A DNA stretch of 63,576 nt, filler included, from Hausera hauseri (Eukaryota): assembly GCA_046269625.1 (NCBI GenBank). It is 10 parts of 10 records of this genome, joined end to end, with 100 filler letters (N's around TTAATTAATTAA, not from the genome) between each part and the next. Parts side by side here need not be neighbours in the genome. Positions count along the whole stretch, not along the records: positions 1 to 7,523 come from JBJURY010009123.1; 9 more parts are not named here. One strand, written 5' to 3'. A model generated the notes under the pieces. The model did not search any database, was not told where the DNA came from, and saw nothing but the letters and a program-made list of their open reading frames with translations. This document shows positions 1 to 36,544 of the stretch, piece by piece. The translations under genes were made by a program, and so were the position numbers. Numbering within the stretch: the first letter of the stretch is position 1; every line of letters starts with the position of its first letter.

Positions 1-336
1 TTTGGAAAACTTGATGGCAGAAACAGAGAGTGCAGTAATCTATCACATTAAAAATAAACCAACATAGGAATTGGATGAAAATGAATTGTCGATACTAGGC
101 ATAGTACCAGTAGACATCCCTCTCATAATGGAAATGTGTAAGATCGCGTTTAACGCACCAAAAGAATATGCGAATATAGGAATCCTCATAGCCTCACAAG
201 ATAAAAGGCGCTCCGAAATCTACCGATGTAAAAATAAAGTAACGTATGCGGAAAGCCAAGAAGTGAAAACATAACGGAAAAATGCATTTTAGAACTAGAC
301 GAATATAAGAAGAAAATAAACTACGTTAAAGGAGTA

Positions 337-2121
337 ATGGACTATATAAAAGATCCAGGTGATAAATTGAACGACGCTTACGAACGACTAGAGAATGTAA
401 TAAACGCAAAACCAGTGATAGATAACCAACTCAAAGAATGGATTGAATTGTTAGACAGATTAATGGATGTAACGCAATATCGTCTAAGGAAGTATTCAGA
501 ATCTGGACCAATATTAAAACAACAGCTGAAGGAAATACTACACGATCTAAATGTTTACAAAACAGAAGCAAAACTTTGAGTAGAATTTAACGCGCTATTG
601 AGACTAAGATTTATGAATAAAGATAAAGAAACGAAACTCACAGAAGAGTTGTATACAATGATCGAAGAAACAGAATTATCGACGAAACAGGAAAAGATCT
701 CCTCCTTATCGATGAGACTAAAAGGTATCCGCCTAGAAGGCATACGACACTTGATAACGAGGCCCATAGATGAAATATCCATAGTTGATCTATCGACGTT
801 GGATGTTTGCCCAATTTATCGATTCGCGTTAGAAGAAGTACTAAATTATCTACATCATCTTTTTAAGTGGGCATCAGATACCGACCAGAATGGTCACGCT
901 GAATTAATAGAAATAACCAAAGATCATCGCCTTACACCGGATGAAGCTAGATTCGTAAAGAGACTGATTGAAGAAATAGACCCAGATTCAAAAACTCTGA
1001 AGGAAATGCGCGAAATAATATCCCTATTATCGGCAATGGCAATAATAGATGACGATAAGACGCGACAATTGACAACCCAAGTTAAAGATATAGAAGAATT
1101 GCGAATTTGTACAAAGCAAAGAGCTACGAAGTTAGATGAATTAGGCAAAGAATTGGAGACTTATAAGAGTAAATACAAAATCAGGCAATCAGAGTTAATG
1201 AATAAAAGAGAATGTGTACAAAAATGGTTAACGGATGTGACGACCGAATTACCGGATTATGAAAGAAAAGGGTTATTTCCTACAGATGAATTAGGACCAC
1301 CATTAAAAACTATACAGCTTGCGTATGGAAATGGAACAGAGTTTCGCACTAACTTGATGAGGGAAATACGGCCAAGATTAAACGGAATCCGTGAAAATGC
1401 ACGAAGCACGCCTATGGAATTGTTAGATTGTGGTATTCCAGACGTTACAGATGACTCAGGATGGGATGCTTATTTAGAAGAATTATACAACCAAAATCCG
1501 AAGACTCCCATCCAACTTCAACGAACGGATACTTTTCCAATCGATCGACGATTTAATGTGGAAATGATATTAAATCCCTCACTAGCCGAGAGAGAATTAA
1601 TTGAGCAGATTAACGTCAACATGACGGAGAGCAGATTGAAACAATTGATCCCTACCTTGACAAAACTATTAAGCGAAAATACCGTTTATAGCTTAGTACC
1701 TAGATTACTGATAAAGAAATACGCTGAATTCTTAAAGGCTAATCCCGAAACGACGGTTAATGTAAAAATATCAGCTGAAGGGATGGAAGAAAAGGAAATT
1801 CAATGTACAACAGCGACATCGGTTAGAGCAGTAAAACAATGGATAGTACGGAACGGTGGAAAATATGAAGTAAATTACCGATTATATTTCCGAGGTAGAA
1901 TACTGGACGAACCCGAACTACTAATAGATGTTGGATTTATTTCAGAGGAAACAAATCGAATAGTGGCTATAATTACAGACGAACAAACAAAAGATGAGGC
2001 TACGAGAAGAGCAAGAGATGAACATTGCGTAGGACTCATTATGGGAGTCAGAGACACCTTGTCATGTATTTTGACTATCTCCATAGCGAGGAAGTTAAGG
2101 AACAATACGATCAGAATCTAG
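337..2121 (+). pseudogene. N-terminal polyprotein segment: helical/coiled-coil region plus ubiquitin-like domain (about 1753-1977)
   Basis: TVNVKISAEGMEEKEIQCTTATSVRAVKQWIVRNGGKYEVNYRLYFRGRILDEPELLIDVGFISEETNRIVAII aligns by eye with the ubiquitin pattern (RLIFAGKQLED...TLHLV). In-frame TGA at 577-579. Confidence 0.65.
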
Positions 2122-2696
2122 TACCGATGAGCGAACCACTACCAACTTCACCGAAACAGAAACGACCAGTGGGAAGGCCGAAAAAAATAAGAGTTGATAT
2201 TGACCAAAGCTCAGCTCTAATACGAGAACTAAGACAACTATCCATGCCCGCAATTAACTCCGAGAACGAAGAGTTAAACGAGTTGCTGAGATACATTATC
2301 AAAATAGTAAACTATTTGGGACCGAGAGACGAGATGTTAGACGAAAAGGAAAAAGCAATATATAATGCTGCGAGAATTATGAGAACATTTCGGATGAAAA
2401 TGAATAAAAGCGATTTATCCGACGAAGTTTTAATTGAGAAAATTTTGGTAGAGAATACTAAGGAAGAATTAAGGAAAATAATATTGTACTTGGCAGTTAA
2501 AACAAATCCCTTAAAGGAAAATGAATTCAATCGAACCATTGGATTGATCAGAAAAGCTGCTAAGAAGATACCTAGAGAAATAAATTGGTCCAAGCTATTT
2601 GGTGACGAAGATGGAAACAGGCCAGCCACTAGAATCGAAGATGTGGTAAGAAATTTAATACCAACTAACTCAGTGCGAGATAGTGAATCAAATTGG
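2025..2696 (+). pseudogene. Basic helical segment with an AT-hook motif (KRPVGRPKK, about 2160-2186), in frame with the glycoprotein
   Basis: ORF 2025..3404 contains a GRP core flanked by K/R and runs without a stop into the glycoprotein signal sequence. Confidence 0.55.
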
Positions 2697-4510
2697 ATGA
2701 TTAAACTGATAACTCTTATGATGCTAATTAGACAGCTCGGTGCAATCACAGTATACGACTGCGATAAGTTTAAGGTTGGACAAAGATATTCCTTAATGGA
2801 TTTGGAACTTTGCGAAGATGCCCGACCTCATAAGTTAGTAACTATCGAAAAGAAGTACTTTTTATATCAGCAACGCGAATTAATCGCAATTGACGGGATA
2901 GAATGCATGTTGCGACGATCACGAAGTATTTTTCACTGCGGAAACATCCACGGACATTCATCGATAGTAAAACCGACGACCCCACTAATTCCTATGGATT
3001 TAGATAGACAACAGTGTAAACAGGCTAAAGAAACCGGAAGATTGAGATGGGATGGAATGGAGTTAGAAACCCAGCCAGGAAAAGTAATTCGAGTATATAA
3101 AGTAGCAATCAGAAAACTGGATATGCACACCGGATACTGTAAAGGAGGTGAATACAATACCGGAAAAGGAAGAGAATCAGGAATAGTAGTGGTCGATTTC
3201 TATGAAACAAAAATAAGGAACCAAAAGATGATGTTCCATAGTATTACAAAAACATATACCGAAAACCAGAAGTACCATATCCAAGATGGTGTCTGTACTT
3301 TCAGGAACTCGATGGTCATTTGGACTCCACCACCTATGAACGATTGTAACTTTATTAAAATAAAGGAAATAAATTTTAACGAAACCCCAGGAAAAGGTAC
3401 GTAGAGACATTCGACAATAATGTCAGACCAAGGAAGGACGTTGCTGAACAATCTACACCCACGATATTGATATCCGAGGACCACGGATTGAAATTCATTA
3501 AGAAACAAATGCTCTCTCGATGCAACGTAGTAATGTATGCCACTAACTACGAAGCATTCTTTGTGGCAGAGGCCGCAATAACCACCTTCACTTTGGAAAC
3601 ACAAGATGTAAGAATAGAGATGACTTCTTCTACTATAAAGGAAAAATTGTACTAGCAGAATTATATCACAAAATGATCGTAAATGATTGTAAATCGGATA
3701 TGGAAATCATGAGAACTAAACTAGCCTTAATCTATGCGAATCCAAAACTAGCATCGCCCGTAATTCCAATGAAAGAAGGTATTTTCGGAAGAGTTACCGG
3801 AGAAGTACTGTTGACCTACGAATGCGAAAGACGAGATGTATCTTTAAACGTGGAAGAAAAACGCTGTATTCAAGAATTGCCGGTCATATATCAAAACGTA
3901 CCCCGATTGTCTATGTCACTTACGAGAGTTTGCTAGAAAACGCGAAACAACCAACTATTTTGAAAGAATGCAAAGCGGGTTTAGGCGAACATATGTTTAA
4001 GAGAAGTGAGACAGATTGGATAAGCCTGCCAAATGGAGGAATGATAGCTACACCTGGCAAATTAACCGGAACAAACTTACTCAAAGGTATAACAGACGAG
4101 TAAATGTAGACACCGCGAGTTAATAGATCTACAGACCAAAAGAGATCGAAGCCTTTAGAAAATTTTTAGCTTTTCCTCGACAGCGCACGCATGAGCTAAA
4201 TAGAGCCATGTCGACTGTGATAGATGACACTCGCTACCATGCGAAGTGGGAATCCTTACTTGGTGTCAATCATTATCAAAGAGTCACCACAGAAATATTA
4301 TATAAAATTTGGGGAAGATTTTTAATTTTCGGACAAGCTGCATCAGGATTTTTAGCCATCTATTTCTTAGTACAACTCATAAAGGCCATAATTCAGTCCA
4401 TTATAAACGGCTACGAAATATTTACTTTAACTGGATTTTCATGTAAAATCTTAACGGCAATCATAAAGCCGTTTGGAAAACTTTTGAAGGCTTACGAAGA
4501 AAACAAATGA
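2697..4510 (+). pseudogene. Chuvirus (Jingchuvirales/Monjiviricetes)-type envelope glycoprotein, about 600 codons, disrupted
   Basis: Signal peptide MIKLITLMMLIRQLGA, then ITVYDC..YSLMDLELC, IECMLRRSRSIFHCGNIHGHSSIV, QCKQAKETG, GYCKGGEY, IWTPPPMNDC, CNVVMYATNY, DCKSDMEIMRTKLALIYANP, GIFGRVTGEVLLTYEC, CIQELPVIY, FLAFP, and C-terminal TM IWGRFLIFGQAASGFLAIYFLVQLIKAIIQSIINGYEIF. These match the order and spacing of chuviral G motifs as I recall them. Confidence 0.85.
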
Positions 4511-4614
4511 AATGCGACGTGGAGAGACACGTTGGTTATTATAATCGGAAACGGAAGAGGAAATCTATATTTTTATAAGCCAAAAAAACACAAAATCTCG
4601 GAAAAACAATTCAG

Positions 4615-7523
4615 ATGATGATGAGCCTAATGGAGGAGACACGGTCTCCAAGACGAGCAATCGTAAGGTGCTTAGGCCACCTTTGCCAATGCTGCATCCT
4701 TCGGCACCACAATACGAAAACAGCGATGGGATCTATAAATTCATATAGTTCGGAAATATATCGAAAGTTTTTTAGTTATGAAGAACCCTATGAAGGGACA
4801 AAACAGTACGGCGTGTTACGAAAAATGTACCGAATTAGGGAAAAATTCGAATTATGCCGTCAACCGGCAGATGATCGCAAGATATACCCCAAGGATTTTA
4901 CGAAGTATCTCTAATTATTCTTCCATAACCAAAGCAACCAAGAGTCGCTAATCAATACACCAGATCGAGATAATGAAAACAGTGCATATAACGGATTGTA
5001 TCCTATTGAGGAATTGAGACAAGTAGCCGAGAATAAAGCACCAGAAATTAGTATAAATGGTTACAAGATATCCGTCACTAAACAACCTAAGATAAATGAA
5101 GGTAGACCTTTCGTCAAAATTAGTATTAACGATTGGGAAGTTTACGCACTAGTAGATACCGGATCAGAGAGATCATTTATAAAGAACGGATCGATACCGA
5201 AAACGTTACGATGTCAATTACGACCACCACTTGCAACCGATCCCGGAAGTATAGGAGCTTTCGGACAAGAATCAAGACCGAAATTCAAGTGGAATCCTAA
5301 TCTTAAAATATTGGGACAGACTTTTCAACATGAATTTTCTATAATGGAATACTTAACAGATGACGTAGTATTAGGGTGTGATATATTAAGACGTCTACCA
5401 AACGTCGCGATAGACTTGAATACCTCAAAGTTAATCGAGCTCGGACCGATAAAAGGAATTAAGATTTATAAGGAAAGAGAATCCGGAGAAGTATGGATTC
5501 CAGTTGCTGAAAACATTCCGCCTAGAACGGAATTGTTGATATTTGCACAAATCTGTCAAGACGACGATATACCGGTATGCTTCGAACCAAAAGAAACGCT
5601 AAATCCGAATATAATCCTAAGCAATATATTAAGCCGAGTAGCATCAGGTCGAATACCTGTAAGAATAGTGAACAATACTCAGACTCCAGTGAAGTTATAT
5701 GCTAACACAACTCTAGGACATACTTACAAGGTACCAGCGATAACGGTTGAAGAGAAACCGTATAAGTACGCTGAATTTCCACCGCACGTTGATACGAAGT
5801 TTTCACCAGAAGCTTATTGCCAGTTTTATGAACTATTATGTCGATATAAATCAATTATTGCGAAAGACGAAGAAGACATTGGCCTAGCAAAGGCATTAAA
5901 ATTAACTATACATCTTAAGAAAAAGCCTGGTTCTAATGATGAAATTGATCTTGAGGAACAGAAAATGCCAAAATGATATCCGCCGCCGCATTCCCTAAGA
6001 CCGGAAATAACCAAGGAGGTAGAACGCATGTTACAGGCCGATATAATTCGACCAAGTTTTAGATCATAGTACTCACCTATTCTAATGGTAAAAAAGAAGG
6101 AAACCACAAAACATCGATTTTGTATCGATTACAGAGCATTAAATACTTTCATAATGAAAGATTCTTTTCCCCTACCATTCGTAAAAGAAGCTCTAGATAG
6201 ACTCTCAGGAGCAAAATGGTTTACTACTCTGGACTTACAATCCGGATATTGGCAAATAGAAATTGAGGATGAAGATCGTTATAAAACCGCGTTTTAAACG
6301 CATGATGGCATATACGAATTCAACGTTATGCCATTTGGAATTACCACTGGCCCAGCCATATTTACCAGGATGATGAATAAAATGTTAATGGGACTTGATC
6401 ATGCATTTGCGTACCTAGATGACGTAATGATTGGATCAAAAGACGAAAAGGAGCATCTGAAGGATATTGAGGACACTCTTATGAGATTAGAACAGGCCGG
6501 GTTGAAGCTAAACCCAAAGAAATGCAAATGGGCTCAAAATGCCGTATCCTACTTTGGTAATATCGTTGGCGAAGGAGGATCGAAACCAGATAAATCATTA
6601 CTGAATAAAATTTCTGACTGTATGGAACCGCAGAACCAAAAAGAACTGAGACATTGGTTAGGTCTATGTGGATATTATGTTACCTATGTACCGGATAACT
6701 CAAAAATCAACGCACCATTATACAGATTATTAAAAAAGGGAATATAATTGAAATGGACCGATGTTGAGCAAAAGTCATTCGATGAAATGAAGAAAATATT
6801 AACTAGCGAACTAGTATTAAGATATCATGATTTTAATTTACCGTTTATTATTAAAACAGATGCAAGTAAAGAAGGTATCGGATATGAATTAGCACAAAAG
6901 CGCGAAGAGGAAGAATTAGAACATCCAATCGCTTACGGAGGACGCTTTCTGAAGAAAGCAGAGAAAAATTACTTGGTGACAGAATTAGAAACGTTAGCAG
7001 TAAAAGAAGCCTTAAGGTATTTTAACGTATATGTATATGGACAGAAGATCATAATAGTTACCGATCATAAGGCAGTTACAAATTTAAAAGGACGCGCAAA
7101 TAACCCTACGTGTAGATTGAATAAATGGATTGAAGAAATATCGAGATACAATATCGAATTCAAATATAAACCTGGTGCAAAACACGTGGATGCAGATTCA
7201 CTGTCCAGATTGAAGACAAAGACAAGTGCAATCATGACAATGAGGAAAAATCAGCTTGAAGAATTAATCGATAGACAACTAACTCTAGCATCAGACAGAG
7301 CAATTAAGATTTCATACGAAGAGAAGAAGGATCGAGTCATCCAACAGATAACCGAATATGTCGAAACGGACGTAATACCAAAGGGGCATCAGTTAAAGAA
7401 ACATTTACAACGACATAGACATAAATATTGTGTCTCCGAAAACAAGGACAGTGAAAAAGTATTGTATTATGAACGAAAAGGAAGAAAGTTAGTAGTCATA
7501 CCCAAAATTCTGCGAACTGAGTG
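4615..7523 (+). pseudogene. pol: Ty3/gypsy pol: aspartic protease, dUTPase-like linker, RT, RNase H, start of integrase linker
   Basis: PR ALVDTGSERS; linker IPPRTE..IPVRIVNNTQTPVKLY; RT RFCIDYRALN, LDLQSGYWQ, MPFG, YLDD; RNase H TDAS, ELE, TDHK, ADSLSR. Several in-frame stops. Confidence 0.95.
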
Positions 7524-7623: not shown

Positions 7624-7791
7624 GGACCCACTATCCTGCATGTTTTAGATGCTTCCCTGCTCTTCAGCAGGTCTTTAGGTTCTGCAGAAGCCTGACAATC
7701 ACTTGTTCATTTAAATTAGGTGTGCCAAAGCAGGGAAACAACTAAAACATGCAGGATAGTGGGTCCCGAGGACTGGAATTGAAAACCACTG
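7624..7791. mobile_element. Palindromic hAT-type MITE remnant (teleost-like)
   Basis: 25-bp perfect inverted repeat GGACCCACTATCCTGCATGTTTTAG (7624-7648 / 7742-7766); ends in AAACCACTG. Confidence 0.65.
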
Positions 7792-7954
7792 GATTAAAGT
7801 AGCGCAAACCCAAAATAACCTGATACATTTTGTTTAGTGTTACACAAATTGTAATAGCAAAGGCAATGTTGTCTTAAGTTTATTTTTTTATCAAAATAAA
7901 TTGCCTATTTTGATATAAACTTAAATTTAATTAGAATCCTTGGTCAAGATTTTT

Positions 7955-10900
7955 CACTGGAAAAGAATATTCATAATTTTAACTAAATTGCCCAAAAATA
8001 TTTTAGTTACTCTTAGTAATTCTTTCCCCCTATTTCACCAGCAACAGCTTCACTTTTAAGTACATACGTTAAAAAAATTAAAAACAAGCCTTGACAAACA
8101 ATGCTGAACATTTTATTTGTCAACAATAAAATGTTTTACAAATGTTAAAAACTTTGGCAAATAACTTAAAGTAAAAACATATTTCTTGAAAACATAAAAG
8201 GTGAAATAAGAGTGCAAATAACGCATATAAGAAATATAATTTTGGAGCATTAAGTGCAACTGTCTAGCTTGCATTTCAAGACATACAACACATTTTATCA
8301 AAAATCAATGCTTTTTTTAAACCAACAAGTCCAACTGCCAATTTAATGAAAGGTCCACATGGAGATAACATGGCATAAAAAAGTGCAACTACAATGTTTT
8401 TTTCATTTGCTCAACAATTTGTTTTTTAGAGTTTGGAGTTTTGGTAGAAGTCTTGTGTTTCCAAGACCCAGCATCACCATTTGAATAAATTTTAAAGAGT
8501 TTTCCATGGGCTTTGGATACTCATGGTGCAATGCGTATATTAGTCCAAAAAGCAGGCAAACTGCTCGAGGGAACTCTTGGATGTTATTTATTACAATACT
8601 TCCCTCCACGACAACAGCAGTTGATGTAGGCTGGAGCTCCATGGTGCTTGATCCATCATCAGGGAGAATAGTGAGTACTCCAACTGTCAAGCTGGCCAAG
8701 ACTTCTTCTTTTGTGGTATCCTACAACAAAACACATTTTCAAAGCATTATAAAAACCTGACTTGTAAAACTAACTGAAACCTAACTACAAGACCCTGTTT
8801 GATTATTTGTTAAAATTTGGTTTTCCCATTAAAAACTCTTCCTGTTTCGTAAATTATTAATTAAACACACCCTGGTAACACCCTGGGGTGGTACCTTCTA
8901 CGTCGGACCAATGAATGCTAAACAATTTTTGTTTATAATACAAAATACCATGCTGATGAAGGTGCTGCTTTTCTCTTTTTTTAAAGCATGACAATTTTTT
9001 AATACCATTACCGTGGAATGTATTTATTTATTCATTTATTTATTAACATTTGTTCCCAAAAATTTGAGACTGGATCTAAAATTCATTTAATTTTGTATAG
9101 TTTCAATTTTTTTGTTCTATGCCTGCTCACTAATGACACTGCAATCAGTTTATTCACCCCTCTAGGACTGGGCGATATGGACAAAAATATATATATAGAT
9201 TTTGTTTCTTCATTTGCCGATATCTGATATCTTTTTTTCTTAAAAAAAAATGCTGTCGAAACCTGCTTGCTTACTAGTACAGGGTATCTGCAGGTTTTAG
9301 CAAGTCAAATTTAAGACTTTTTAAGACCGTTTTAATACCACTTTGAATGAAATTTAAGACCAAAAATATAAGCGATGGTTCTGGGATACTACTGTATTAA
9401 AACCAAGCACATACGTTGTTCAATAAAAAGAATTGAATATAAAGATATTCAGAGCTCTCTGGTTAAATTAGCTGTATTGTACAAGTGCAGTTATTTGGTT
9501 GGAAACAACAAAAATCTATCTACTAAATACATTCATGGTATTAAACTTGTGTTTTAACCTCCAGTTTTGCCTTTATACAAAATAAGCCATCTAGCCAACT
9601 GTCAATAAATATGCACTTTAATGTGACCCATCACTATCCAACAAATGCCTGAAGGAAGAGAGGTTTTAACAACTTTACTGTAGTTCATTTTGATTTAATA
9701 GTCTTTGAATCGAGGGACTCTGATATATTTATAAAATTATAGCATATAAATTTCCTTTATAAAGAATAAGTTACCAGTAAGTTATTTTTTATTTTTTAAT
9801 AAATTTATTTATTTATTTATTTATTTGAGTTTCAGATTCCTCCCTTAAAATCAACATTTCATTCAAAGGGAATATTTACAGGATTATAGCTCTTTTAATC
9901 GAACTGATTGATGATTTGGAATCCTTCTAGATGGCAACCTGTGACCTATTATAGTCAAAAGTTTTCTGTTACTAGTGACCATTGTGTGAGCAACTCATAC
10001 CACTTATTTTTCATATTTGATCATTTATGAATTATATTTATTCCAGTTCAGTTAGTAGTATAGTTCTAAAGATAATAAAAGTTTACCACACCCAAACAGA
10101 CAAAACACCTCATTATTATCATTATCTTTTCTATAACATGAATTATATAGATTTTATATTTTCTCATACATAACTGAAATATTTGTTTTACCATACAACG
10201 TGCAGCTCAGTAAATAAAGAATAACAGCACGTTTTTGAGAAAGAGGAGGAAAACTTTTTTTTTAAAACTGTGGAGGGGCAGAAGACTTTGACGACAGGTG
10301 CACATTCATGGGTCAATGGACCAGGGGCCTCATGTACAAAGACTTGCATGGATTCCTTACTGAAACGTGGTGTATGATCAAATCCAGAAAACGGGACATG
10401 CACAAAAATAAGCCAAAATTCAATGTCTACAAAATGTCTGATTCTATTGATGAGACTATATTTCCTAGTATAAAAGGTATAAACTTAAAAAAAAAACTAC
10501 ATATTTGACAAGTTATGCAGGACAGGTTCTAAAAAAACATTATTTAACCTTTGCATTAGGTGAAAATACCTTCAGTCGCGTGTTCTGTCTTTAAGATCAG
10601 TGTCTGAACCTAAAGGGTCACAGGCAAAAGAGGGGAAAATAAGTTGACAAAATGTATTTATAGGATTTATCAGATCAGTTTGATTTAGTGGTGTTCCGAT
10701 CAATCGGCCACCGATCAATATCGCCCGATGTTCATGAAAAATTATGTGATCTGCGTTTCCGATAAATGCCTTCAATTGCCAATCACAAACAGCAGAGGCT
10801 GTGTGTAGCTGCATTCAGTGTAGTGTCCCCCTCCCCCTTTCACCTCGCTGTGGGAAGAAATTGCGCAGGCGCATAGAGGGAGCAGATCATAAACAAACAT

Positions 10901-12816
10901 GTCGGCCGCCTAGAACTTTTTCACCGTCTGTGAGAGTGATGCTAAGTTTCAGTTTTTATTTTAATAAATTCCACTTTTTTCCATTCCCCACCCTGATTTC
11001 CACATTTTCATTGTGACCATATTTATTAACCTAAAAAGTGTGTAATTATAAGGTGAATAAAAAAATAAATAGCTACAGAAATAATGTCTGTTTTCGCTTT
11101 CACTAATATAACAAATAGTGTTACAGTACAACGTTAAATCTTTTTGAAAGGTGTTTAAAAGTATTTACCAAAAATAACGTGAAAACAGTCAAGTTATATT
11201 TTGTAAAATAAAAATGTTGTAGAATTTAACTTAACATCAAATATGTCAGAGAAATATAAATCCTACAAACAGCAACAATTTGTGCACAATTGCCAATTGA
11301 ATAGAATCTAAGCTCATTTACTTCTGTAATGGAGAGACACACACATAGTTTTCAGGGCTTTATCAACAAATGGACAAAGTTTTTTCATTTTTTCTAAGGA
11401 AATATCTCCTGACCTTCCAGCTCACTTCTGAGTGTTGAGGAGTTTTCAGTGTATCGCTCAGCTCCTGTCCCTTTTTGATGTGACTCAGAGAGGAAGCTGT
11501 CCTCCCAGTGTCCAGTGCTGAAAATTTCTTCTACAGATAAATTTAAAAAAAACAGTGAGACACTGTTCTGTCCTAAACTTTACTGTTGCTTCATATTTTG
11601 GAGGATGTTGATTTTAGTGAGTTTTTTGTTTGCGAGCGGGTCGCGGTTTTTATTTTTTATTTTATCCTCCTCCTGCTGTGTCTGGAAGGAAGCTTGGAGC
11701 TCACCCCGTGTGCCTGTTACCAGGTAGCGGCAGGTAAAGTGAGCAGCAATGGCCAAAATACGTCAGAAACTTGGCCAAATAAGCAAACTTCGTGAGAATT
11801 CACAATTTACACTGGATTACATTTGATTTGGTCAATTTTACGCGTTGCGGAAATTTGAAGGCCCTGTTTTTCCACTTTGAGAACACAGACATAAGATTAT
11901 CATGCAGAATTTATTTTTACTAAAACGCAGATTCAAAATTTATTTTAAATCTCAGAGCCTGTAAGACGTTAAAAAAAGCAATAAATAAAATTTAAAAAAT
12001 TACCTTACAGTGCTCCAACCATAAAGAAGTTCTCCACTTCTCGCAGTCATCCTTTACGCCTCTTTTCCCAACAGGCGTTGTTATCTTCTCTAAGGCTGAC
12101 ATGTATGCATTTTGGACAAACAAAAATGTAAAACATTTACCCACAGAAGTGAAAAACGTCTTTCGTGCTGTCCTACAGCTGTGACTCACAACGTGACGGC
12201 CGCCATATTGCTTGCAGATAAATTAGGCAGGAGATACCACCAGCACGAGAAACAAGTTACATGCTAGCAATAAGACCACAAATTATTCACTAAATGACAG
12301 TAATATTAAAAATTAGCTGCTTTGGCCTCGGAAAGTTAGTGAGTCCACACAACAACTTTGCTTAAACTTTAGAAGTTAAAAAAATGTTCGGCAACAGCAC
12401 ACAAACAGCAAGCTAACAGCAGCAGAAAATGGTGTACGAAAATAAAAATTACTTACTCACCAAGTTAGTGTCCCAACGATTAATAAAATGACCCCACAAA
12501 AAGCCACATGTCGGGAGTCGTCTTCTTGCATGTGTGGTCTTCGCTTAGCAGGTAACTACAGTGAGCGCGCCAAATGGAGATATGTCCGGGCATGTCCTGA
12601 GTTTGAAATGTTAACCCTTTGCAATCCAAAATCCCCACCACTTTCAAATTACTTATATTTTTTGAGTAGACTCAACTTAATTTTTTTAACTTAACAAGGA
12701 TTTTTACCAAAATGTTGGCACAACTTATTTTGGATAAGTACGAACAACAAATTGATGAGATTTAAGTTGTCTTAACTTGAAATATTTTATTAAACACAAT
12801 GTTGGGTTTTTCAGTG
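7955..12816 (-). mobile_element. EnSpm/CACTA-type DNA transposon derivative (teleost-like) with nested hAT MITE fragments
   Basis: Termini CACTGGAAAAG...GTTTTTCAGTG, subterminal TTAAGTT/AACTTAA motifs and an internal SAMD3-like exon. hAT-like ends at about 9162, 9280 and 10686. No clean TSD. Confidence 0.5.
8403..8720 (-). CDS. Terminal exon of a SAMD3-like transposon-associated protein
   Basis: Acceptor TTTGTTGTAG, then ...AVVVEGSIV..AVCLLFGLIYALHHEYPK..FIQMVML..PKLQTLKNKL, the C-terminal motif of fish EnSpm-associated SAMD3-like proteins. Confidence 0.7.
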   Translation of the reverse strand, partial: DTTKEEVLASLTVGVLTILPDDGSSTMELQPTSTAVVVEGSIVINNIQEFPRAVCLLFGLIYALHHEYPKPMENSLKFIQMVMLGLGNTRLLPKLQTLKNKLLSK

Positions 12817-13664
12817 TAGTGTGAGTGAAACAGGACGTCATCTGGCTTCAAGCAAAACAAAGCTATTATAGCAATAACCTTAGCAACAACTTGGCACAGC
12901 CTGAGGAAAAAAAAACTTCACAACATCCAGCTAAGTCAAGAACACTCTTCAGGGAACAGGCGGGTAAACATATCACTATCAGGGACTATCAGAAATAGAA
13001 AACAAGAGCCAGTCCAGAGAATACACTAGTCACAAACCATTCATAAGACTGAAGAAGAAAAGTTCAAATTTACAAACAGGATCTCTTCCAAGACACAAAC
13101 TGATATCAGCCAACAATCTATCAGAATGACTGGATAATGAAGCATAAATTAGACATTAGTTGTAAAGTAATAAACTCATTTCAACAACACCAACACAGGT
13201 GTGTTTACAGACTCATGCTGGGACAAAAAGACTGAACAGTGTCAGGGTATATAATCTACTCAGATTCAGGAAACTGCAGCATAGCTGGATGGACATCACA
13301 TCACTGCATAAAAGACANNNNNNNNNNNNNNNNNNNNNNNNNNNNNNNNNNNNNNNNNNNNTTAATTAATTAANNNNNNNNNNNNNNNNNNNNNNNNNNN
13401 NNNNNNNNNNNNNNNNNCGAAATTCGAATATCTGACTCGAGATCGCCATATTCGACTACCTATCTGTCCCCGCTAATTATAATATCGAATTTTGACTCCT
13501 AGGACCTAAAAATCTAAGGGAATTTTGCCTCAGTTGCACTTCCCATTTTTCCGCTTTTAATGTATGCACCCAATAAAAATCATGGAAGATGACTAGAAGA
13601 AAAAATGAAATAAAGACTAGGATATGTAAGTAAGAGTGCTTAACCGTGATAAATAGAGGTATAT

Positions 13665-16600
13665 ATGATCCAATGTTGTGACGATCCGGAGATGAGAAAG
13701 GAAATCTACCGCAGTGCCGAAATAAACTTAGAACAAATCAAAGAGAAAATACAGAAAGTTCATGAAGTGGCAACAAAGGCGGAAGAAATAAATACAGTCA
13801 GAGAATACACTAAAGATGGTCGACGGCGTTATCGGAATGTGCTAGTGCACAAATATTACAAACCAATACAAGAAAGGAGGGATTTCAAACCATACAATAC
13901 GCAGGCAAATAGGATGATGAAATGCTGGTCGTGCCAGAAAAACAGGTATACAAGCGGGACATGCAGCCTACAACAAGTACGAAGATGTTTTGGTTGTAGG
14001 AAAGAAGGTCACATTAACAGGAATTGCCCGGAAAGGAAACCTATAATATGCTGTGTGAGGTCAGCAAGGACTCATAAGGCGAAATTGCATAAACATAAAA
14101 TGCAACGGATGTCACAATAACAGGCGTGGGGAAGAAGAATGTTATACAAAATTGGACAAGAACAGAAGACAAAATACGTATGTCGACAATTTCAACGTGT
14201 GGGATATGGTCAGAAAAGATATGGAGAAAGGATGAACAGCAGACACGCATTCGTTGCAAATATTGACGAGGACTATGAAGAATCCATCACAGAGTCGACA
14301 ACCCCAAAAGGAGGAGCCTCGACAGAAGTGGGGCTAGTCAATGCATTATATTAAACAACTTCAAAGGCTCACAAAATATTCAAAGGAATGGACAAGGTAT
14401 TGAAGAAATGAAGGAAAGAAGAAAGGAAAAGGTACGAAGGTTTATAAAAAAGGAAACGTATGGGGGCAGAAACGAAGAAGTACGATTTACAAAGTCAAAA
14501 TGAGAGCATCCATGAAAGCAGGATGTTTTCCTTGGAAGGATTGACGGAAAAGAGTATCACGTATTATAAACTACAAGAACGCCCAGGTATAAAAATAAAT
14601 GTACAAGATAGATGGGAAGAATGCCTATTATACACAGGGGCACGAGTGAACCTGATGAGTAGGAAGATTTTTGAAAGATTGACAGATATCTGGCTGGAGA
14701 AATCAGATATCATACGCCGCTTTGCAAATGGTAGCTCCCTAGATTGCATGGGTGAACTGTCCGTAAATGTGGAACTCAAGGGTGTACAGAAGCACGTAAC
14801 TTTCATAGTAGTGACAGACATATCACCGGAAATAATAGGAGGAATGGAACTACAAAAGACTTTTGGAATCGAATTAGGTTGGCTACAGAAAGAAAAGGAT
14901 GAACAAAGATATGATGTATACAACTTAGAAGCAAAATTTGGTCGAAAAGTGACGAATGAAGAACGTTTCAAAAGAGCGAAGGAGATTCTGCGGATAAACG
15001 AAAACTCAATGGTCTTGGACACAGTACGGAATAACCAAGAAGCCTTCATGGCCGACAAGTGGGATATCGGCTGTACAACATTGATCAAGCATAGAATAGA
15101 TACAAAAGGCGCACCAAGTAACATCAAACCGCATAGACAGTTAGTGAATCTAGAAAGCAAAATCGATGAGACCATCCAAAACTTATGGGAAAACAATATC
15201 ATCAAGAAATGTATTTTACCTTGGAATACTCCGATGATCTGCGTCTGGATGAAAGAGAAAAACGATGTCAAAATTTGTCTAGACTTTAGACAGTTGAACC
15301 TCGTCACAGAAAGACAAGCATACCCCATGCCGAATATGATAGAAATGATGGATAATATATGGGGCTAGATATTTCACATCACTCGATTTAGTAAACGCAT
15401 ACTATCAGGTCGAACTAGAGGAAGAATCCAAGTTGAAAACAGATTTTTCGACTAAACAGGGACAATTTTGTTTCAGCAGAATGCCTTTTGGAATAACAGC
15501 AGCTCCGGGTACATTCCAAGAAGTGATGAACAAAGTACTGGGAGATATCGAACAAACTATATTATACCTAGACGATATACTGATCTTTTCGAAGTCATTA
15601 GAAGAACATTATGTAATACTAGAGAAAGTACTAGATTAGGTCAAAAATGCGGGACTGAGAATAAACCCAGAAAAATGCTACATCCTAAAAAAGGAGGTAA
15701 AATTCTTGGGGCACATTGTGAATAACTAAGGAATACAAACGAGTCCCTCCAAGATGGATGCCATCAGATCGTTTGAGAAACCAAAATGTGTAAAAAATCT
15801 GAGAAGCTTCTTAGGGATTTGTAATTGCTACAGGAGATTTATTCAAGGTACGCAACAAAAGCTAAGGCATTAGAACTGATGTTCGGACCAAACAACAAAA
15901 TGTGGTATGGACCGAGTCTTGCAACAAAGCGTTTGAAGCAATGAAAATGGGTTTGGAGTCCTCACCAATAATACGATTCCCAGACTTCAAGAAGGAATTT
16001 TTTCTGGATACTGATGCTAGGTTCGATACGATTGGAGCAGTTTTATCACAGAAAGACAGCGCCGGGCATGAAAGAGTGATTGCATACGGGTCACACGGAA
16101 TGAATAATCACGAAGAGGGCTATTGCATTACACGGAAGGAGTTGATGGCTATATACTACTTCTGTCAACATTTCAATCACTACTTGTATGGAAGAAGATT
16201 TACACTGAGAACGGACCGCAAGACTATTACCTTCATGTTGAAAACAAAAAAGCCGATAACAGCACAATTCCAAACCTGGATAAACTATCTATCAAGTCTA
16301 GACATAAGACTGGAATACGCGAAAGGAACAGATCACGCAAACGCCGATATGTTATCCCGGACCAATTGCGGCACATGCAGCCAATGCTTGCTAATTCACG
16401 AAAAGGCCAAAACACATAAGATCAAGACTCGGAGGATAAGCGCAGTCGATGCAATAGAAGCATATCCGTATCAAAGAGACAGCAAAGAAATTGAAAGGAT
16501 AAAAGAAGAAACCTCAAAGAAAGAGCATTGGAAATATTTAGTAGAAAATGGCATAGTGAAGACAAGAACAGGTAAGATATGGATACCAACGGATGAGAGG

Positions 16601-17583
16601 GAAGGAATGATAAAGCAATGCCGCGGCATGCTATCCCATGCCGGAATAAAAAAGTAACACAATGCATAAGCAATAACTACGATATGACAAACATGAAAGA
16701 CACCATCAAGGAAGTGATTGGATGCTGTGAGGCATGTCAACGAAACAAGACCGTGACAATGGGTACAAAGGAAGAGACCCTGAAACTCTCGGCAAAAGAA
16801 CTATTTGAGAAGATCTACATTGACATTTGCGAACAGTTAAAAGAGACCTGGAGGAAGAAAAAATAGATATTGGCCATCATAGACCAGTTTAGCAGATATA
16901 TATATCACTATCGGCGATAGCAAAACAGGACAAAATAACAATAAAAGACACGGTGCTAAAGATATGGATTCTCAAATTCGGTGCACCAAAAAAGATACAC
17001 ACAGATTGCGGTAAAGCATTTGAATCTAACATATTTAGAGACATGACGGCGTCAATAAGCATCAAGATGTAATATTCAAGCCCACATCATCATAACACCA
17101 ATGGCATAGTGGAAAGGCAATTACGCACAATTAGCGAATATATAGGTGCGACTCTCCACGATCGACGACAAACCGATTGGGAAGAGATACTACCAAAAAT
17201 AGAATTCACATTGAATGCGACAGTTCAAAAAACAACAGGAAAGAGCCCAGTAGAAATAATATTTGGAAGAAAATACATAGCGAGAGATGTCATGGACAGA
17301 ATAAAACAAAACAATCGACAAAGAGTATCGACCCAGAAAGGATACCGGTAAAAAGAGTATTCCAGGTCGGCGTAAGTGTATTAATACAGCAAGAATCGGG
17401 AACAAAAGATAAAGACAAATATGAAGGGCCATGCGAAGTCATTGAGAGAAAACACGACCGACGATATATACTGCAACACCCGGATGACAGAATTCTGGAA
17501 AGAAATGTGGAAAACTGCGGAAATTCTTAAAGGAGAAAATGTAAGGAGGAATTGGAAGGAATATTCAATAAATAAATTTAATT
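13665..17583 (+). mobile_element. Ty3/gypsy LTR retrotransposon family B, copy 1 (5'-truncated; gag-PR-RT-RH-IN-PPT-partial LTR), decayed
   Basis: Gag knuckles CWSC and CFGCRKEGHINRNC; PR LLYTGA (decayed DTG); RT CLDFRQLN, MPFG, YLDD; RNase H DTDA, NADMLSR; IN H..H/CEAC, NGIVER. PPT AAAGGAGAAAA at 17529-17539; LTR starts TGT at 17540 and matches the LTR at 20448. Confidence 0.93.
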
Positions 17584-17589
17584 AAGTTA

Positions 17590-18150
17590 TAAAATAAAGT
17601 TATATTTTAGTTTGTATAGATTTATACGCAACATATGCATTCTGCATTGCAATGATTAATAAAACTCAAGAATCTTTAAGAGAAGCATATGAAAATATTT
17701 TTGAAAGTTATCAAAGAATTCCTGATTATATTTGGTTTGATAAAGAAAGCGGAATAAATCAAAATATTTTGATAATTTAAAAAGAACATAAAATTATGTC
17801 ACAATGAAAACGAAGGAAAATCAGCTTTTTCAGAGCGATTAATAAAGGCATTAACATGTAAAATATGGAAATATTTTGCATCAGTTGGAAATCAAAAATG
17901 GAATAAACTTTTATTACGTAGATAAATTAGTTGATGAATATAATAACCCAATTCATTAAAGTATTAAGGTAACACCTAAAAAGCTTCTTCAAATAATAAA
18001 TTAATGCAAGAGACAATACGTAAATATAATCATGAAAATAATAATTTAAAAGTAAAAGAAAAATTTGATATTTTGTAAGAGTGAAAATTTATAATTATAC
18101 AAATAAATTCGATAAAGTTTATATTACTAAACTTAGTAATGAAATATTCG
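17590..18150 (+). pseudogene. Polinton/Maverick-type rve integrase fragment
   Basis: Manual translation gives YILVCIDLYATYAFCIAMINKTQESLREAYENIFESYQRIPDYIWFDKESG, NEGKSAFSERLIKAL..KIWKYF..GNQKW..LVDEYNNPIH and KFDKVYITKLSNEIF, which match Polinton integrase motifs. Stops and frameshifts present. Confidence 0.75.
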
Positions 18151-18215
18151 CTTTTCATTTTTTCACATGATTGAATTTGTTGCATCTCCAGGTGTATAAA
18201 TGTTTTTTAATTTTG

Positions 18216-18560
18216 CTAACGGAAACCACACCCAAGTCTAGATTCAGCCACAAGTTTATCTGCTATTCTAAATTTTTGTTCGAATTTTTGATCAAGAACT
18301 TTGGTTTCAAATTTTATTAAGTCTTTAACGTGTATTTTTGTTCCAAATGCTCCAATATTCGTGATATCTTCTGTTGGTTTCAGTAACTTTTTCTTTAATA
18401 ATTCTGGCAATTGTTTGCGTGAAATCATTGAGGCTGAGGCTTCTGTATCAATTATAGCCGTGATAGGTTATCCATCTATTCAAATTACCGTTCTTGGTAT
18501 TACTTTATCACCTTCTATACTAGTTATCAGGGCTTCTTTTGGACCCGTTGAATAAAACGT
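18216..18560 (-). pseudogene. Retroelement aspartic protease fragment related to family A
   Basis: ITAIIDTEASASMIS (decayed DTG), IGAFG and LGC; the last two are shared with the contig-1 protease. Confidence 0.7.
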
Positions 18561-19084
18561 TAGTTTCATATGCTTTGAATTGTAATTTTCCATATCACTA
18601 GGATAATGTATATCTATGTAATAGTTAGAAGTGATGAATAACTGTTATTCTATTGGATATTTGTTCCATCTTTTTACTTTCAGAATATCTGCTAGCAAGG
18701 TTCTTCATTTCTTACTACGAATGGTGATTAAACTCCATGTTTTTTAGCATTCGAGAATGAATTGGTATGAGATTTTGCTTTCTTCATTCTTTTATCGAAG
18801 AACATCATCATCATTAGTCATTTTTATTCCTTTGTTTCCATGCGGCATCCTTCTTTATTAATAAAAAGCTAGCTAAGGATGGAATCAGGATATTATAATT
18901 TAAACCATTATTTAAATTTGCTGCATAATTTTTTAAAATTTCAGAAAATCAAGATTTCACAGTATATCACAAACATTTTGAAAATTTTATCAACAGAACC
19001 AATATTTATCAAGATAAATAAAAAATCATTAAAGTCTGATCTCATTTATATCGATTAAACTAAGACGATCATACAGAAATCAAT

Positions 19085-20308
19085 ATGAGTGAAACCTCAT
19101 GGATAAATTACGTCTGCCTTGTCCGCCTGGATAATAAAACAAAACACATTTTAGAATTTGTTTATCCTGAATGTATATTTATTACCGATCTCAGTAAAGA
19201 CCAAATAAGATTTCAATCTATCCCAGATGATCCTCGATTTGTTGACGAAAAAAAGACTTACCATTTCAAACTAAATCCTGAGAAAGATAAAGAATCTCAT
19301 ACTGTCTATATACAATGTCGACAAATTAACTTCAACGATGGTTTCAAATCAGTTTCAGTTTGTTTAGTGACAAATTTTCATTGCCACAATTTCTTCTATC
19401 ATCTCGTTGACATAGCAGCACATGCGTACTACCAATTTGGACTGGATGGGCTGATGAAATTTTATCATCAAACCCGCCAGTGGACAAATCCAAAATTGAC
19501 AGAAATGATTGTTTTACCAACAATTAGAATTGGTTTCAAATTTCTCTCAGTTAACAAACAAAAATATTCCGCAATTCAAAATAAAGAAAGAAATATCTGT
19601 TGGTTGAATCCTTATCACGTACCTTGTTGGCCAGAATTAGAAATAATGTATCCTCACCTACAAACATTATGGGAAATGGTGTTGCTTAACAAGCCCATTT
19701 TGGTTGCGTCCAATGATGAAACCTCTGTTACGAGATTTGTTGAGTTCCTTGGTTCAATAGTGGAACCATTGGATATAAGTAATAATGTGATACCATTGTC
19801 CAGTTCCTATGACGAATTATCGTGTGGCAATAAAATTATTGGAGTAACAAATCTCCATTTGAAATTATTTCTCAAAGACCACCCAAATGTTGTCGACCTA
19901 ACGAAAATGGATAAAGAACCCTCGTTATTTAAATGGATTGGATCATTATTTGATGATGGTCTATTTAAGTCCAATTATGTGCCGTATTTAGACCAAGACT
20001 CGATACTGATCGACAACATTGAGGAAGGATTGGCTAATCACAGAAATGAATATTTTCAATTGTTAATTATTGAAAATTATTTTAGAAAACTGACAAAAAA
20101 TTTTCTCGATAAATTGGACCTATCCATAAAAATGATGAATTGGGGTAAAAAGACCGTTAATTTCAGTTCGGATTATTTCTTTGGCTGTAAAGATGTGAAC
20201 AAAATGCCAACTGAAACGGGAATTTCGGGCAATTGGAAAGAACTTTATTCGGAATTTTTTAATTCTGAAAATTTTCAAATTTTTTTCAATAAAACTCTTG
20301 GAAAATAA
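19085..20308 (+). CDS. DENND6: DENN domain-containing protein 6 (FAM116-like Rab GEF), intronless and highly divergent
   Basis: Intact 407-aa ORF. Motifs WINYVCLV..LEFVYP, HLQTLWEMVLLNKPILV, IIGVTN, YFRKLTKNF and GNWKELYSEFFNSENF follow DENND6A/B in order. Confidence 0.85.
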   Translation: MSETSWINYVCLVRLDNKTKHILEFVYPECIFITDLSKDQIRFQSIPDDPRFVDEKKTYHFKLNPEKDKESHTVYIQCRQINFNDGFKSVSVCLVTNFHCHNFFYHLVDIAAHAYYQFGLDGLMKFYHQTRQWTNPKLTEMIVLPTIRIGFKFLSVNKQKYSAIQNKERNICWLNPYHVPCWPELEIMYPHLQTLWEMVLLNKPILVASNDETSVTRFVEFLGSIVEPLDISNNVIPLSSSYDELSCGNKIIGVTNLHLKLFLKDHPNVVDLTKMDKEPSLFKWIGSLFDDGLFKSNYVPYLDQDSILIDNIEEGLANHRNEYFQLLIIENYFRKLTKNFLDKLDLSIKMMNWGKKTVNFSSDYFFGCKDVNKMPTETGISGNWKELYSEFFNSENFQIFFNKTLGK

Positions 20309-20447
20309 AATTTGATGTTTATATTCGAGTTTATTATGTCATATAGCGATAAAATGTGACTTTTTATTTTAGTAGTAATATTTTAAGTTTCACAGATTTA
20401 ATTGTATAAATTTTGCATTTCATTTACAATTTATCAATTTTGTCCAG

Positions 20448-20619
20448 TGTGAGGAGGAATTGAAAGGAATATTCAATAAATAAATATAATTCAATAAACA
20501 GCCAAGTGAAAGTTAGGAAATTCAGAAAAGAAGGAAAACAAGACACATTTCCCGAGTTGAGGAGATAATTGTTATATAAACTTTTATAATAAATTTTTTG
20601 TGGATAATTTTATTTTACA
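20448..20619 (+). repeat. 5' LTR of family B copy 2 (3' boundary approximate)
   Basis: Starts TGTGAGGAGGAATTGAAAGGAATATTCAATAAATAAA, matching the post-PPT sequence at 17540. Candidate ACA end at 20619; gag ATG at 20669. Confidence 0.65.
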
Positions 20620-20668
20620 ATCATCAAGTGACGTTGAGGTTCGGATGGTAGAGACGCGATCTACTAAC

Positions 20669-33737: not shown

Positions 33738-33895
33738 CGATATCATAAATAATCGACCAATTTTTTAATTTATTGTTCACAATTTTATATCCTACTATAT
33801 AAATAATGGACTTGAATTCTAATCGTGTATAATTCTGTACAGCTTTTCAACTTATTCGTTTATCCACTTCTCAATTTATAACATTTCTCCTCCCT
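33738..33895 (-). repeat. Polypurine tract (33884-33895) and start of the 3' LTR (33883 to contig end)
   Basis: Minus strand reads AGGGAGGAGAAA immediately followed by TGTTATAAATTG. Confidence 0.75.
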
Positions 33896-34093
33896 GAATG
33901 GCACACTCGGATGTGCCCATTGCGTCAGGAGAGGTGCCGCGGCGACTGGGACTTCGTAATAATTCCATCCGCTGGCTTAGACTAGGTCCAGAACTGGTAC
34001 TTGACTGGCGTTCTCTGGGGTTCGGTTCCAACTCATAACTGTGATAGGGTTTAATTCTAACTATTCGGGTGTAACTACCATTTGAGTAGTACT

Positions 34094-34825
34094 TTAGGTC
34101 TGCGGCCTCAGCTCGGTATATACTGGACATGTGGTCTTTTCATTATCTAATGTCCATTTCTCTAAGCAATCTCTGCAATATTTATTACGGCAATCCGGGT
34201 TATTTAACACTACATATCCTTGTTTTAGGTTTGCCTCACATACGGGGCATTCGTTCTCCTCTTTCACCCAATTTTCTTCGTCTAGATCTACTCTTAACAT
34301 AATCTCAATAGGTTCTACTATTAACCCTTCTTCATCTTCATATAGATAGGCATAGATTCTTTTTTGTTTCGGATTCATTGAGCTTTTTTTGGGATCACAT
34401 CCAACGGCTATCAAGGTCCAATCGCTGATAGTGCCTCGATCTAAATCGGGAGCTTCACCAGTCGATCGGTATTTTTGATATTGTTTCTTTAACAGCAGCT
34501 TAACTGATTTATCCACGGGAACTATTACTTTACCATTTCGTTTGGGTTGAAATATTGGGGCAATATACTTCCCGATTTTGGGATTTTCTCAGACATACGT
34601 GTTCTCGTAAACTTGTCTGGCAGGCAATAGTTTGACAAAGAACATTGCTTCTTTGATCTTTTGTTTACTATAGTACTCGGTGGTTACTAACATCCTGGGG
34701 TAGTCTGCTGTTGTAGCATAATGGACATTTTCTATGGATGTCTTCTTTCGTAAGACATTTATTTCGGTTATTTGTTCTTCCTGCCTTTTTTGTTTTATTG
34801 TGGGTTTCTCAATGCGGGACTGCAT
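34094..34825 (-). pseudogene. Accessory ORF ending in a C3HC4-type RING finger (about 34118-34249)
   Basis: CPVC-x15-CRNKYCRDCLEKW..CPVY; H>N and C>Y are each single-base changes. 34589..34825 and 34094..34516 share a frame. Confidence 0.7.
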
Positions 34826-35250
34826 CTTTTGTTTTGCGGGTTCTGCTGTTGGTCGTTCTGGTTTTGAATTCTTTCTGCACGATCTTGGTTCTTCTTTTGA
34901 TCCTTTTTCGCCTCCTTTGCTTTTTTCTTGAACAAGTAACCGAAAAAGGACGCTTTCCTTTTTGTTGTTTTATCGCTTTCAGTCTCTGACTTTCTCTATT
35001 CCTCTTCTGTGTGTTTCCGAGGTATTTCTGGTATCTTAAATGAACTATTATTTGCTGTGGCACCATAACTTGTACCGGGTCTTTCATCGATGCGAGCTTT
35101 ATTTTCTGTCTTCACCGTTTTCAATCCCTGTATGGTTATTTGGTAGTTCCAGTCTGGTTTAATTTCAACATTCCTGGGTGGAGAATAAGGGCGAAAATGT
35201 TTGCGGTATCGTGTGCTGAGTCCTTCAAATTTTGGGAAGTTCCGTAAGTT

Positions 35251-36138
35251 TTATCTGGGGTTGGTGGGAGTCCATTCATGTTCCCACTTTAATCCAGCAT
35301 TTATATCCCTTAGATATTGGGATCTTTGACTTGCGGATAGTATTCTACTTATTTTTATGTTTTCCCCGGTCATGATTTCTACCATTAATTTGAAGCGGCC
35401 TTCCATGGTCAGTGGTATGTGACTCCTCTTCTCTTCAACCCTATTTCCCACTTGTCTCATAATAGTCGGGTGGGTTTCTATTTCTCTTACTCCGGCTATA
35501 TATGTTATCGGTATGGCCAATTTCCTCATTATCCTCTCTATTTGATACCCTATTAAGACGTATCCATAGAGGTATTGTATTACTTCTTGTTGTACTAATT
35601 TGAAATCCTTGCCATGATTCAGATGCTCTATTTTAATTCCGGTAATTTCTAAATGAGTTTCAAACACTTTTTGCCTTGGATTGATGATTTTTGAATAAAC
35701 TTCAGTCCCGTTTTCTTCTCGGATGGATATTTCGATGGCAATGTAATTCCCTTCTTCTCCTTCCCCATAATTTATCGCGACAATTCTGAGATTTCTCTCG
35801 TCAGCCACCAGTCTGAACGAGTGCAAATAGGTATCTTGTTCCTCTTTTGTAGGCCTTTGACTAAACTCTAAATGTGGTAACGATATAGGTATTTCTTCTT
35901 ATGTGGTTTCGATCATCATTTTTACTGGTAAGGCGGCCACGCGAAATTCCAATTCGTGATTTTTGAGGCTCCTACTATTGAATACAAAGGTACTAAACCG
36001 GCTTTGTCTCCCTTTGAAGGAATCCCATTTTTGATCCTTTAGCCGATAGTATATTTCCCCGTCCGCCAAATGCACATATTGTCTGTTCTTTATCTGCTTA
36101 ATACTGAGCGATTGGTTTAAAGGGGTATGCCCTAGCAT
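35251..36138 (-). pseudogene. DEDDh (REX4/ISG20/REXO-like) exonuclease domain
   Basis: IVAINYGE..EISIREENGTEVYSKIINP..VFETHLEITGIKIEHLNHGKDFKLVQQEVIQYLYGYVLIGYQI follows the REX4-like consensus. The ExoI acidic motif is degenerate. Confidence 0.75.
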
Positions 36139-36544
36139 ATTTATTCTCCCTCCATGCGTATAAATATACTGTTCTAGCCTCCTCGGTTGTCCCTTTTAAT
36201 CCATTCGGGATTTCACCAACTTTCCCGTATTGCACAAAACGTTTCCTTTGTAATTCCGTGTTTATTTGCCTATAGACGGCCTTTGAATTTGGGATCCGCA
36301 CTGTCACGTAGTTTTGTAGAAATTCGTCGATACTAAGTCGACTAGTCATTTCCTCCGTGTCGATTCTAAGTCGACTCGGAACTTCCTTGGCGTCGATGCT
36401 AATTCGGCTTGGTTCCATCTGGGTCTGAGTACTTACCAATCTGAACAAAAGAACATAAAGGTTAATCTTAAAACAAAGGATGGTTTTAAACCAAAACCAA
36501 TTCTTTGTTTGATGATAGAATAACCTGATCTGTAATTGTCAGGT

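Follow-up and report, generated by a model that had tools for sequence, protein, structure and literature searches.

A class III fusion glycoprotein gene ahead of the protease in a decayed Ty3/gypsy element from the Hausera hauseri assembly

The DNA analysed here (the window) is a stretch of 63,576 nucleotides (nt) from the Hausera hauseri assembly GCA_046269625.1, made of ten contigs joined end to end. Its first part, 1-7523, is one whole contig (JBJURY010009123.1), cut off at its 5' and 3' ends. We consider it highly probable that this contig represents an internal piece, now decayed, of a Ty3/gypsy element with many copies, in which the gene of a class III fusogen lies between a ubiquitin-like (Ubl) module and the protease, and which likely encoded one gag-env-pol polyprotein of the type known from the planarian element Burro, inherited from an old and widespread lineage. 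The layout has already been published, so that 1-7523 is likely a new lineage member of a known layout rather than a new capture.

The glycoprotein and the enzymes of contig 1-7523

Across the contig a helical region is followed by the Ubl module, an internal signal, a class III glycoprotein (G) with its transmembrane (TM) anchor, protease (PR), reverse transcriptase (RT) and RNase H (RH). The features are given below; profile searches were made against the 711 open reading frames (ORFs) of the ten joined contigs.

1..1596 (+): 5' part of the polyprotein, charged and helix-rich, role unassigned; coding-like, no significant Pfam match; the contig starts inside it and the gag core is not present
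1597..1968 (+): helical and ubiquitin-like module, family-wide; relatives' profile E 6e-9, top of the 711 ORFs
2160..2186 (+): basic GRPKK stretch, read from the sequence; also precedes G in relatives P0002, P0004, P0007 and P0013/P0053
2190..2663 (+): helical domain before G; helical model, pLDDT 59
2697..2747 (+): internal signal peptide of G; hydropathy 1.63; same internal position in the intact ORFs of relatives
2748..4318 (+): class III fusogen ectodomain; frame changes near 3400, 3600 and 3900 and within 4100-4127
about 4319..4405 (+): TM anchor of G; hydropathy 1.8-1.9; the PF24664 match reaches profile position 600
4406..5097 (+): cytoplasmic tail and linker to the protease; broken, coding-like, without repeat or long terminal repeat (LTR)
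5098..5397 (+): aspartic protease; PF00077 E 7.8e-7; DTG at 5155
5512..5724 (+): PR-RT spacer, family-wide; family profile E 1.6e-10, best of the 711 ORFs; Pfam blank
6091..6561 (+): reverse transcriptase; PF00078; YLDD at 6412; one internal stop
6754..7149 (+): RNase H; PF17919/PF17917; alignment to the sister copy

Three of the five ORF pieces of 2697-4510 match PF24664 (Monjiviricetes_fusion) above the cut-off and in collinear order, over profile positions 5-227 (E 3e-18), 326-410 (E 3e-9) and 478-600 (E 1e-19), and the remaining two align with intact relatives (tblastn). The hydropathy peaks lie where an earlier, sequence-only reading of this DNA had placed them. Its full-length glycoprotein, running from signal to anchor across stops and frameshifts, is therefore borne out, and the signal (2697-2747) does sit inside a longer ORF (2022..3404). 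The model of this ORF has a pLDDT mostly above 90 over residues 281-450, the G part. When the folded N-terminal piece of G was compared with 48,161 PDB representatives, the top five structures were herpes simplex virus (HSV) gB, human cytomegalovirus (HCMV) gB (two), Bourbon virus GP and Chandipura G (Z 6.2-7.7, root-mean-square deviation 4.0-6.1 Å, 115-166 residues aligned). The best viral model match was the G of a chu-like virus (E 4.5e-16); a PDB sequence search with the G alignment returned proteases only. The window G is a fusogen of the chuvirus/Monjiviricetes-type, class III (gB-type), as the earlier reading had it.

The gypsy enzymes reported downstream of G are also in place. PR, RT and RH follow one another in Ty3/gypsy order, and integrase (IN) comes after RH in a sister copy at 33738..40597 on the minus strand, which is 74% identical to 1-7523 in nt over 1,584 nt and 86% in amino acids (aa). 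In the contig itself the end at 7523 falls just ahead of the integrase zinc finger. Differences between the two copies in RT-RH are mostly at third codon positions (61/39/214 for the three positions), a purifying pattern in pol.

To cross the whole contig 16 breaks are needed, versus 98 in shuffled sequence (0/40 as low), and the first 579 nt alone are crossed with 3 against 7.9. The codon model gives a single clearly favoured frame along nearly all of 1-7523; purine skew and codon use are uniform, with a CpG observed/expected ratio (o/e) of 1.13-1.24 in each of three thirds. The G gene consists of five reading-frame segments joined by four frame changes (2697-4510), and the pol part (4579-7521) is a single frame with 5 stops. 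Because there are at least 16 breaks, this copy is dead and is itself no agent, and the proposal of a candidate enveloped agent falls for it.

Ahead of G, the "basic protein" of the earlier reading holds as far as the GRPKK stretch goes, which we take to be AT-hook-like; this stretch is short, it comes with a helical domain, and the Ubl module lies ahead of it. Ubiquitin/Rad60-SLD Pfam scores for that module are weak, E 0.06-0.07 in 1-7523 and E 0.006-0.02 in relative L002.

Linkage of G to pol and descent of the element

The TM ends at about 4405 and the protease starts at 5098, which places env less than 2 kb upstream of pol. Two breaks suffice to cross the junction (4480-5103) versus a shuffled mean of 6.95 (0/300 as low), in agreement with the earlier claim of coding-like sequence there; for 4511-4990 alone the figures are 2 and 4.9 (7/300 as low). 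The stretch 4615-4914 is open in the protease frame, as had been stated. However, a weak codon-bias signal over 4561-4800 favours frames other than that of the protease, and the stretch is therefore probably the cytoplasmic tail of G rather than a protease leader. A PSAP motif lies within this probable tail (4545-4748, +); we assume it to be an ESCRT-recruiting late-domain motif.

Among what would count against it, the sequence-only reading had named a G-pol adjacency peculiar to this contig, with an LTR or target-site duplication at 4510-4990. No repeats were found at the G-protease junction, and the same order recurs in relatives. The stretch was found in one public run, X1 (share 0.38), and no RNA run was listed for it. 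In X1, 10,684 of 15.5 million contigs fall on 1-7523, mostly at 85-95% (range 85-99+%). Since they lie over all 30 of 30 bins, the family is multi-copy. Over 4250-5300 there are 1,783 such contigs, again covering 30/30 bins. Among the diverged pieces, some reach across 4268-4574 and 4509-4727, and one connects 4651 with 4923.

Relatives were collected by phmmer with ORF 2022..3404, which gave 51 matches, all over the G part, of which 18 were scanned further. Four of the 18 are single proteins with G-PR-RT-RH-IN (P0007, P0008, P0016, P0024), another four combine G with protease, and five consist of G standing alone at about 650 aa, two of them from named viruses (Wenzhou crab virus 2, Hubei lepidoptera virus 4). 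No longer protein turned up in a word-index search with the G piece. Further single ORFs with G-PR-RT-RH-IN are P0053 (4,844 aa, ankyrin repeats also present), L001 (3,426 aa) and L002 (3,703 aa), seven natural ORFs in total. The last two, with L003 (1.8 kb), are the three loci found among 104 stretches of JGI metagenomes; scans of IMG/VR and GTDB gave no relative. The order in L002 is gag, two zinc knuckles, Ubl, G, protease copies, RT, RH, IN and, at the end, another protein running from a signal to a TM; an exonuclease ORF follows the polyprotein. A gag upstream of env is present in L002, P0002, P0004 and P0047. The single polyprotein of the earlier reading is thus matched by seven intact ORFs, and we infer it for the 1-7523 copy itself. 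Since diverged copies cover the whole stretch and these seven ORFs hold G-PR-RT-RH-IN, the linkage is not an accident of nested insertion. Window and relatives are further linked by the helical-Ubl module and the PR-RT spacer, each top of the 711 ORFs with the profile listed above.

Some further observations on the relatives can be added. Two to seven aspartic protease-like copies occur per polyprotein in P0053, P0007, P0004, P0047, L001:2-10279 and L002:97-11205, and one in the window. P0016 has a DEDD-like stretch ahead of G (residues about 110-290), which may resemble the arenavirus NP exonuclease. For the complete G-pol polyprotein P0008 (HBK71150.1) the recorded source is a Flavobacteriaceae metagenome-assembled genome, likely a case of a eukaryotic contig placed in a bacterial bin.

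The G and RT phylogenies called for by the earlier reading were run. The G tree had 20 rows (13 retroelement G, five stand-alone viral-type G, P0046 and the window), fragments among the 51 matches being left out. The window grouped with eight retroelement G (support 95/96), and the 13 retroelement G plus the window were split from the five viral-type G (100/98). Window G is 25-48% identical to pieces of the retroelement G; its scores against viral G are lower. Because it nests within retroelement G, apart from viral G, it was inherited with the element and not freshly captured. For pol, a 34-row RT-RH-IN tree was built from the two window copies, 10 family pols and 22 other gypsy pols chosen from 120 listed, all gypsy-type by Pfam; the nearest pol relatives among the matches listed are 37-48% identical and from mixed hosts. 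Both window copies join the 10 family pols (88/99, unstarred). With less certainty, the pol tree would agree with an inherited G; for Burro-like elements in general, G and pol trees broadly agree.

Alternative explanations and known systems

The earlier reading took env-like genes to lie 3' of pol, but an in-frame env between gag and pol is known (PMC6431247, PMC13524379). For planarian Burro/GYPSM1 a single ORF is described, holding Gag, Ubi/SUMO-like, BCL2-like, env, PR, dUTPase-like, RT, RH and IN; its env matches mononegavirus fusion glycoproteins and is said to be the first case of an env lying in frame between gag and pol (PMC6431247). The same source, citing Grohme 2018 and Jurka 2007, describes giant gypsy-like elements with accessory ORFs and decaying copies in some hosts; Burro is also mentioned once in PMC11410931. 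The relatives of the window element have the module order of Burro. In 1-7523 a Ubi/SUMO-like domain precedes env by the family profile, with weak Pfam scores; the charged helical stretch 1..1596 holds the position of the Smc-like part of Burro; the spacer 5512..5724 is at the dUTPase-like position, where Pfam shows no dUTPase; and the helical domain 2190..2663 occupies the spot where relatives have a Bcl-2-like domain. PF00452 (Bcl-2) is below the cut-off in three relatives (E 2e-5, 2e-3, 7e-3) and blank for the L001 piece. The MATH, BIR and ankyrin domains of Burro were not seen in the window, and the host, unlike that of Burro, is probably not a planarian. Burro-like elements are larger than 25 kb; contig 1-7523 covers 7.5 kb.

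Following Sacco 2022, PMC13524379 (Chary and Hayashi 2026) describes GAG-ENV-POL gB-type errantiviruses from Nematoda, Bryozoa and Platyhelminthes; in arthropods it reports a chuvirus-like G beside gypsy pol. Contig 1-7523 is like the former in its Ty3/gypsy pol, its class III env 5' of pol with signal and TM (signal or TM at the start in the published elements), and its multi-copy state. They differ in that the published copies are intact and LTR-flanked, whereas 1-7523 is broken by at least 16 interruptions and cut at the contig ends; failing the intactness filter of PMC13524379 concerns the state of this copy, not the kind of element. The chuvirus-G BEL/Pao elements of mosquitoes (Dezordi 2020, as cited in PMC13524379) carry the same glycoprotein class, but on a BEL/Pao and not a gypsy pol and in another arrangement. 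In a continuous ORF with a glycoprotein ahead of pro-pol, the nematode NERV elements would also be like the layout proposed for the window element. Their ORF reportedly holds a glycoprotein of RNA-virus type before pro-pol, and they are said to be nematode-restricted. They are cited as gag-env-pro-pol elements (Sacco et al. 2022, in PMC13524379).

Several results weigh against a Burro-type polyprotein inherited as a unit. G carries 4 frame changes, versus none over 2.9 kb of pol, and env could have decayed before pol in this copy. On contig 1-7523 no integrase, LTR or repeats were found (repeat search; Pfam), and a gag profile from five relatives gave no match among the 711 ORFs. Profile, pairwise, Atlas and fold searches gave no significant Bcl-2 match for the window helical domain, Bcl-2-family chains being few and solely among non-significant Foldseek rows (E > 1). 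None of the 1,783 X1 contigs over 4250-5300 spans TM to protease unbroken, and because X1 may be the source sample its copies are not independent evidence. In the 34-row pol tree the window copies are on a long branch, and in a quick 75-row RT-RH tree that branch has no resolved place. The kinship with Burro rests on domain order and not on a tree, because the comparison included neither Burro nor any published GAG-ENV-POL sequence.

We think it improbable that gag-env and pol are instead separate ORFs, joined by programmed frameshift or read-through, which would leave the linkage unchanged. The G frame stops at 4510, coding character is least clear in the tail (the 7/300 shuffles and weak codon signal above), and G and pol are two different proteins in P0003 (G) and P0062 (pol), both on 20,084-nt contigs; but the junction is not more broken than the remaining G, and the seven single-ORF relatives include L001, the nearest kin of P0003/P0062. 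That the gypsy lineage of 1-7523 acquired a chuvirus-type G recently and independently, the capture which the sequence-only reading had proposed, is very unlikely: G groups inside the retroelement set and scores lower against viral G, and four non-G modules are common to the window copies and that set. In favour of such a capture are the chu-like virus G among the best structural matches, the long branch of the window pol, and the report that the GAG-ENV-POL elements published so far do not form a single clade in pol (PMC13524379); the viral side of the G tree consisted of just five viral-type G, two of them named viruses. That an endogenous viral G fragment lies beside a gypsy pol by chance, or that the contig is chimeric, is hardly credible, although the window consists of short contigs strung together, some with mixed CpG content. 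Strand skew, CpG and codon use are uniform over 1-7523, the junction is without repeats and is covered and partly bridged by diverged copies, and intact relatives show the same order.

Sister copy, host setting and use of G

The sister copy continues into integrase and beyond.

33738..40597 (-): sister element with RT, RH, IN, signal, exported region and TM, exonuclease-like ORF and RING ORF
signal 37948, then exported region, TM 36703 (-): post-integrase membrane protein; relatives' profile E 4e-8, best of the 711 ORFs
36098-36538 (-): ORF, function unassigned
35251-35898 (-): exonuclease-like ORF without the first acidic motif; relatives' profile E 1e-7, best of the 711 ORFs
34094-34588 (-): RING ORF; PF13639 E 7.5e-7

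The post-integrase membrane protein and the exonuclease are common to the sister copy and L001/L002. Pfam gave no FN3 match in the exported region, "FN3-like" being a reading by eye alone. A purine tract with TG at 33895-33882 lies near the element end, one of 5 such tracts in its contig. The available text of PMC6431247 names no post-integrase membrane protein, exonuclease-like or RING ORF for Burro, and literature searches on this accessory set gave nothing beyond that paper and PMC13524379. The second membrane protein after integrase is possibly new, as is the host of the element; Sacco 2022 or Grohme 2018 may already name the protein.

Other features of the window are as follows.

13418-24493 and 44500-51100: further decayed gypsy elements, lacking env; two copies each, in direct and inverted arrangement
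19064-20308 (+): DENND6/Avl9-like ORF, intronless, short and very divergent, between two gypsy copies
31953-33241 (+): glycogen debranching enzyme in two overlapping pieces, the middle apparently missing

The contigs at 7624-13317, 24594-29020 and 57959-63576 have a vertebrate-like CpG o/e of 0.33-0.6, versus 0.9-1.3 in the others, and some window contigs shift in CpG content internally. The assembly looks like a mix of vertebrate, likely fish, DNA and that of another eukaryote. Since the element is not CpG-depleted, and only 1/40 of the private differences listed is of the CpG-decay type, its host is likely a non-vertebrate. The long branches and the DENND6-like gene, which is short and intronless, lead us to guess at a myxozoan, with about an even chance of being right; a parasitic flatworm is the main alternative. 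Searches on the glycogen debranching fragment and in Rfam gave no match, and the Atlas matched the DENND6-like protein without informative taxa. CpG content would be a weak myxozoan marker, as of the papers listed one is for and one against methylation loss. For eight myxozoan genomes PMC13524379 gives 0 POL-ENV and leaves the ENV-POL cells blank, and it counts ENV-POL candidates in Gyrodactylus and some cestodes; our literature searches for a myxozoan env element gave none.

For intact members, a single long ORF, as in the seven relatives, would be translated. Going by membrane-protein topology and retroelement biology, the internal signal would direct G into the endoplasmic reticulum, where signal peptidase would free its N-terminus; the TM of G would stop transfer and return the chain to the cytosol. 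The element's own protease would release RT, RNase H and integrase, and another membrane protein would be positioned by the further signal and TM that follow integrase. Trimers of G might allow capsids to bud and to fuse into neighbouring cells, probably from soma to germ line within the host. Such budding and fusion would be the likeliest use of G; for most such elements the transmission mechanism is not known, according to PMC13524379.

A broader picture may be offered tentatively, although we consider it doubtful as a whole. In it, Burro-type elements would be one old, widespread family of retrovirus-like agents with two surface proteins per polyprotein: ahead of the enzymes a class III fusogen, and after integrase an attachment-like membrane protein, together with host-control cargo (Ubl, Bcl-2-like, exonuclease, RING). 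With contig 1-7523, an expanded lineage on a long branch, this family would extend into a cnidarian (myxozoan) parasite of fish, from which none has been reported. Burro-like polyproteins are common in metagenome assemblies, and many end in a second signal-to-TM protein. A fusogen with a separate attachment protein would, if true, resemble herpes- and paramyxovirus entry, and the layout with two surface proteins would give a testable handle on whether such elements move between cells. As the headline layout is known, the main value of the finding lies in range and anatomy. If the host is a myxozoan, the range of env-before-pol would include a non-bilaterian, a point relevant to the ancient origin that has been proposed for gypsy elements with env.

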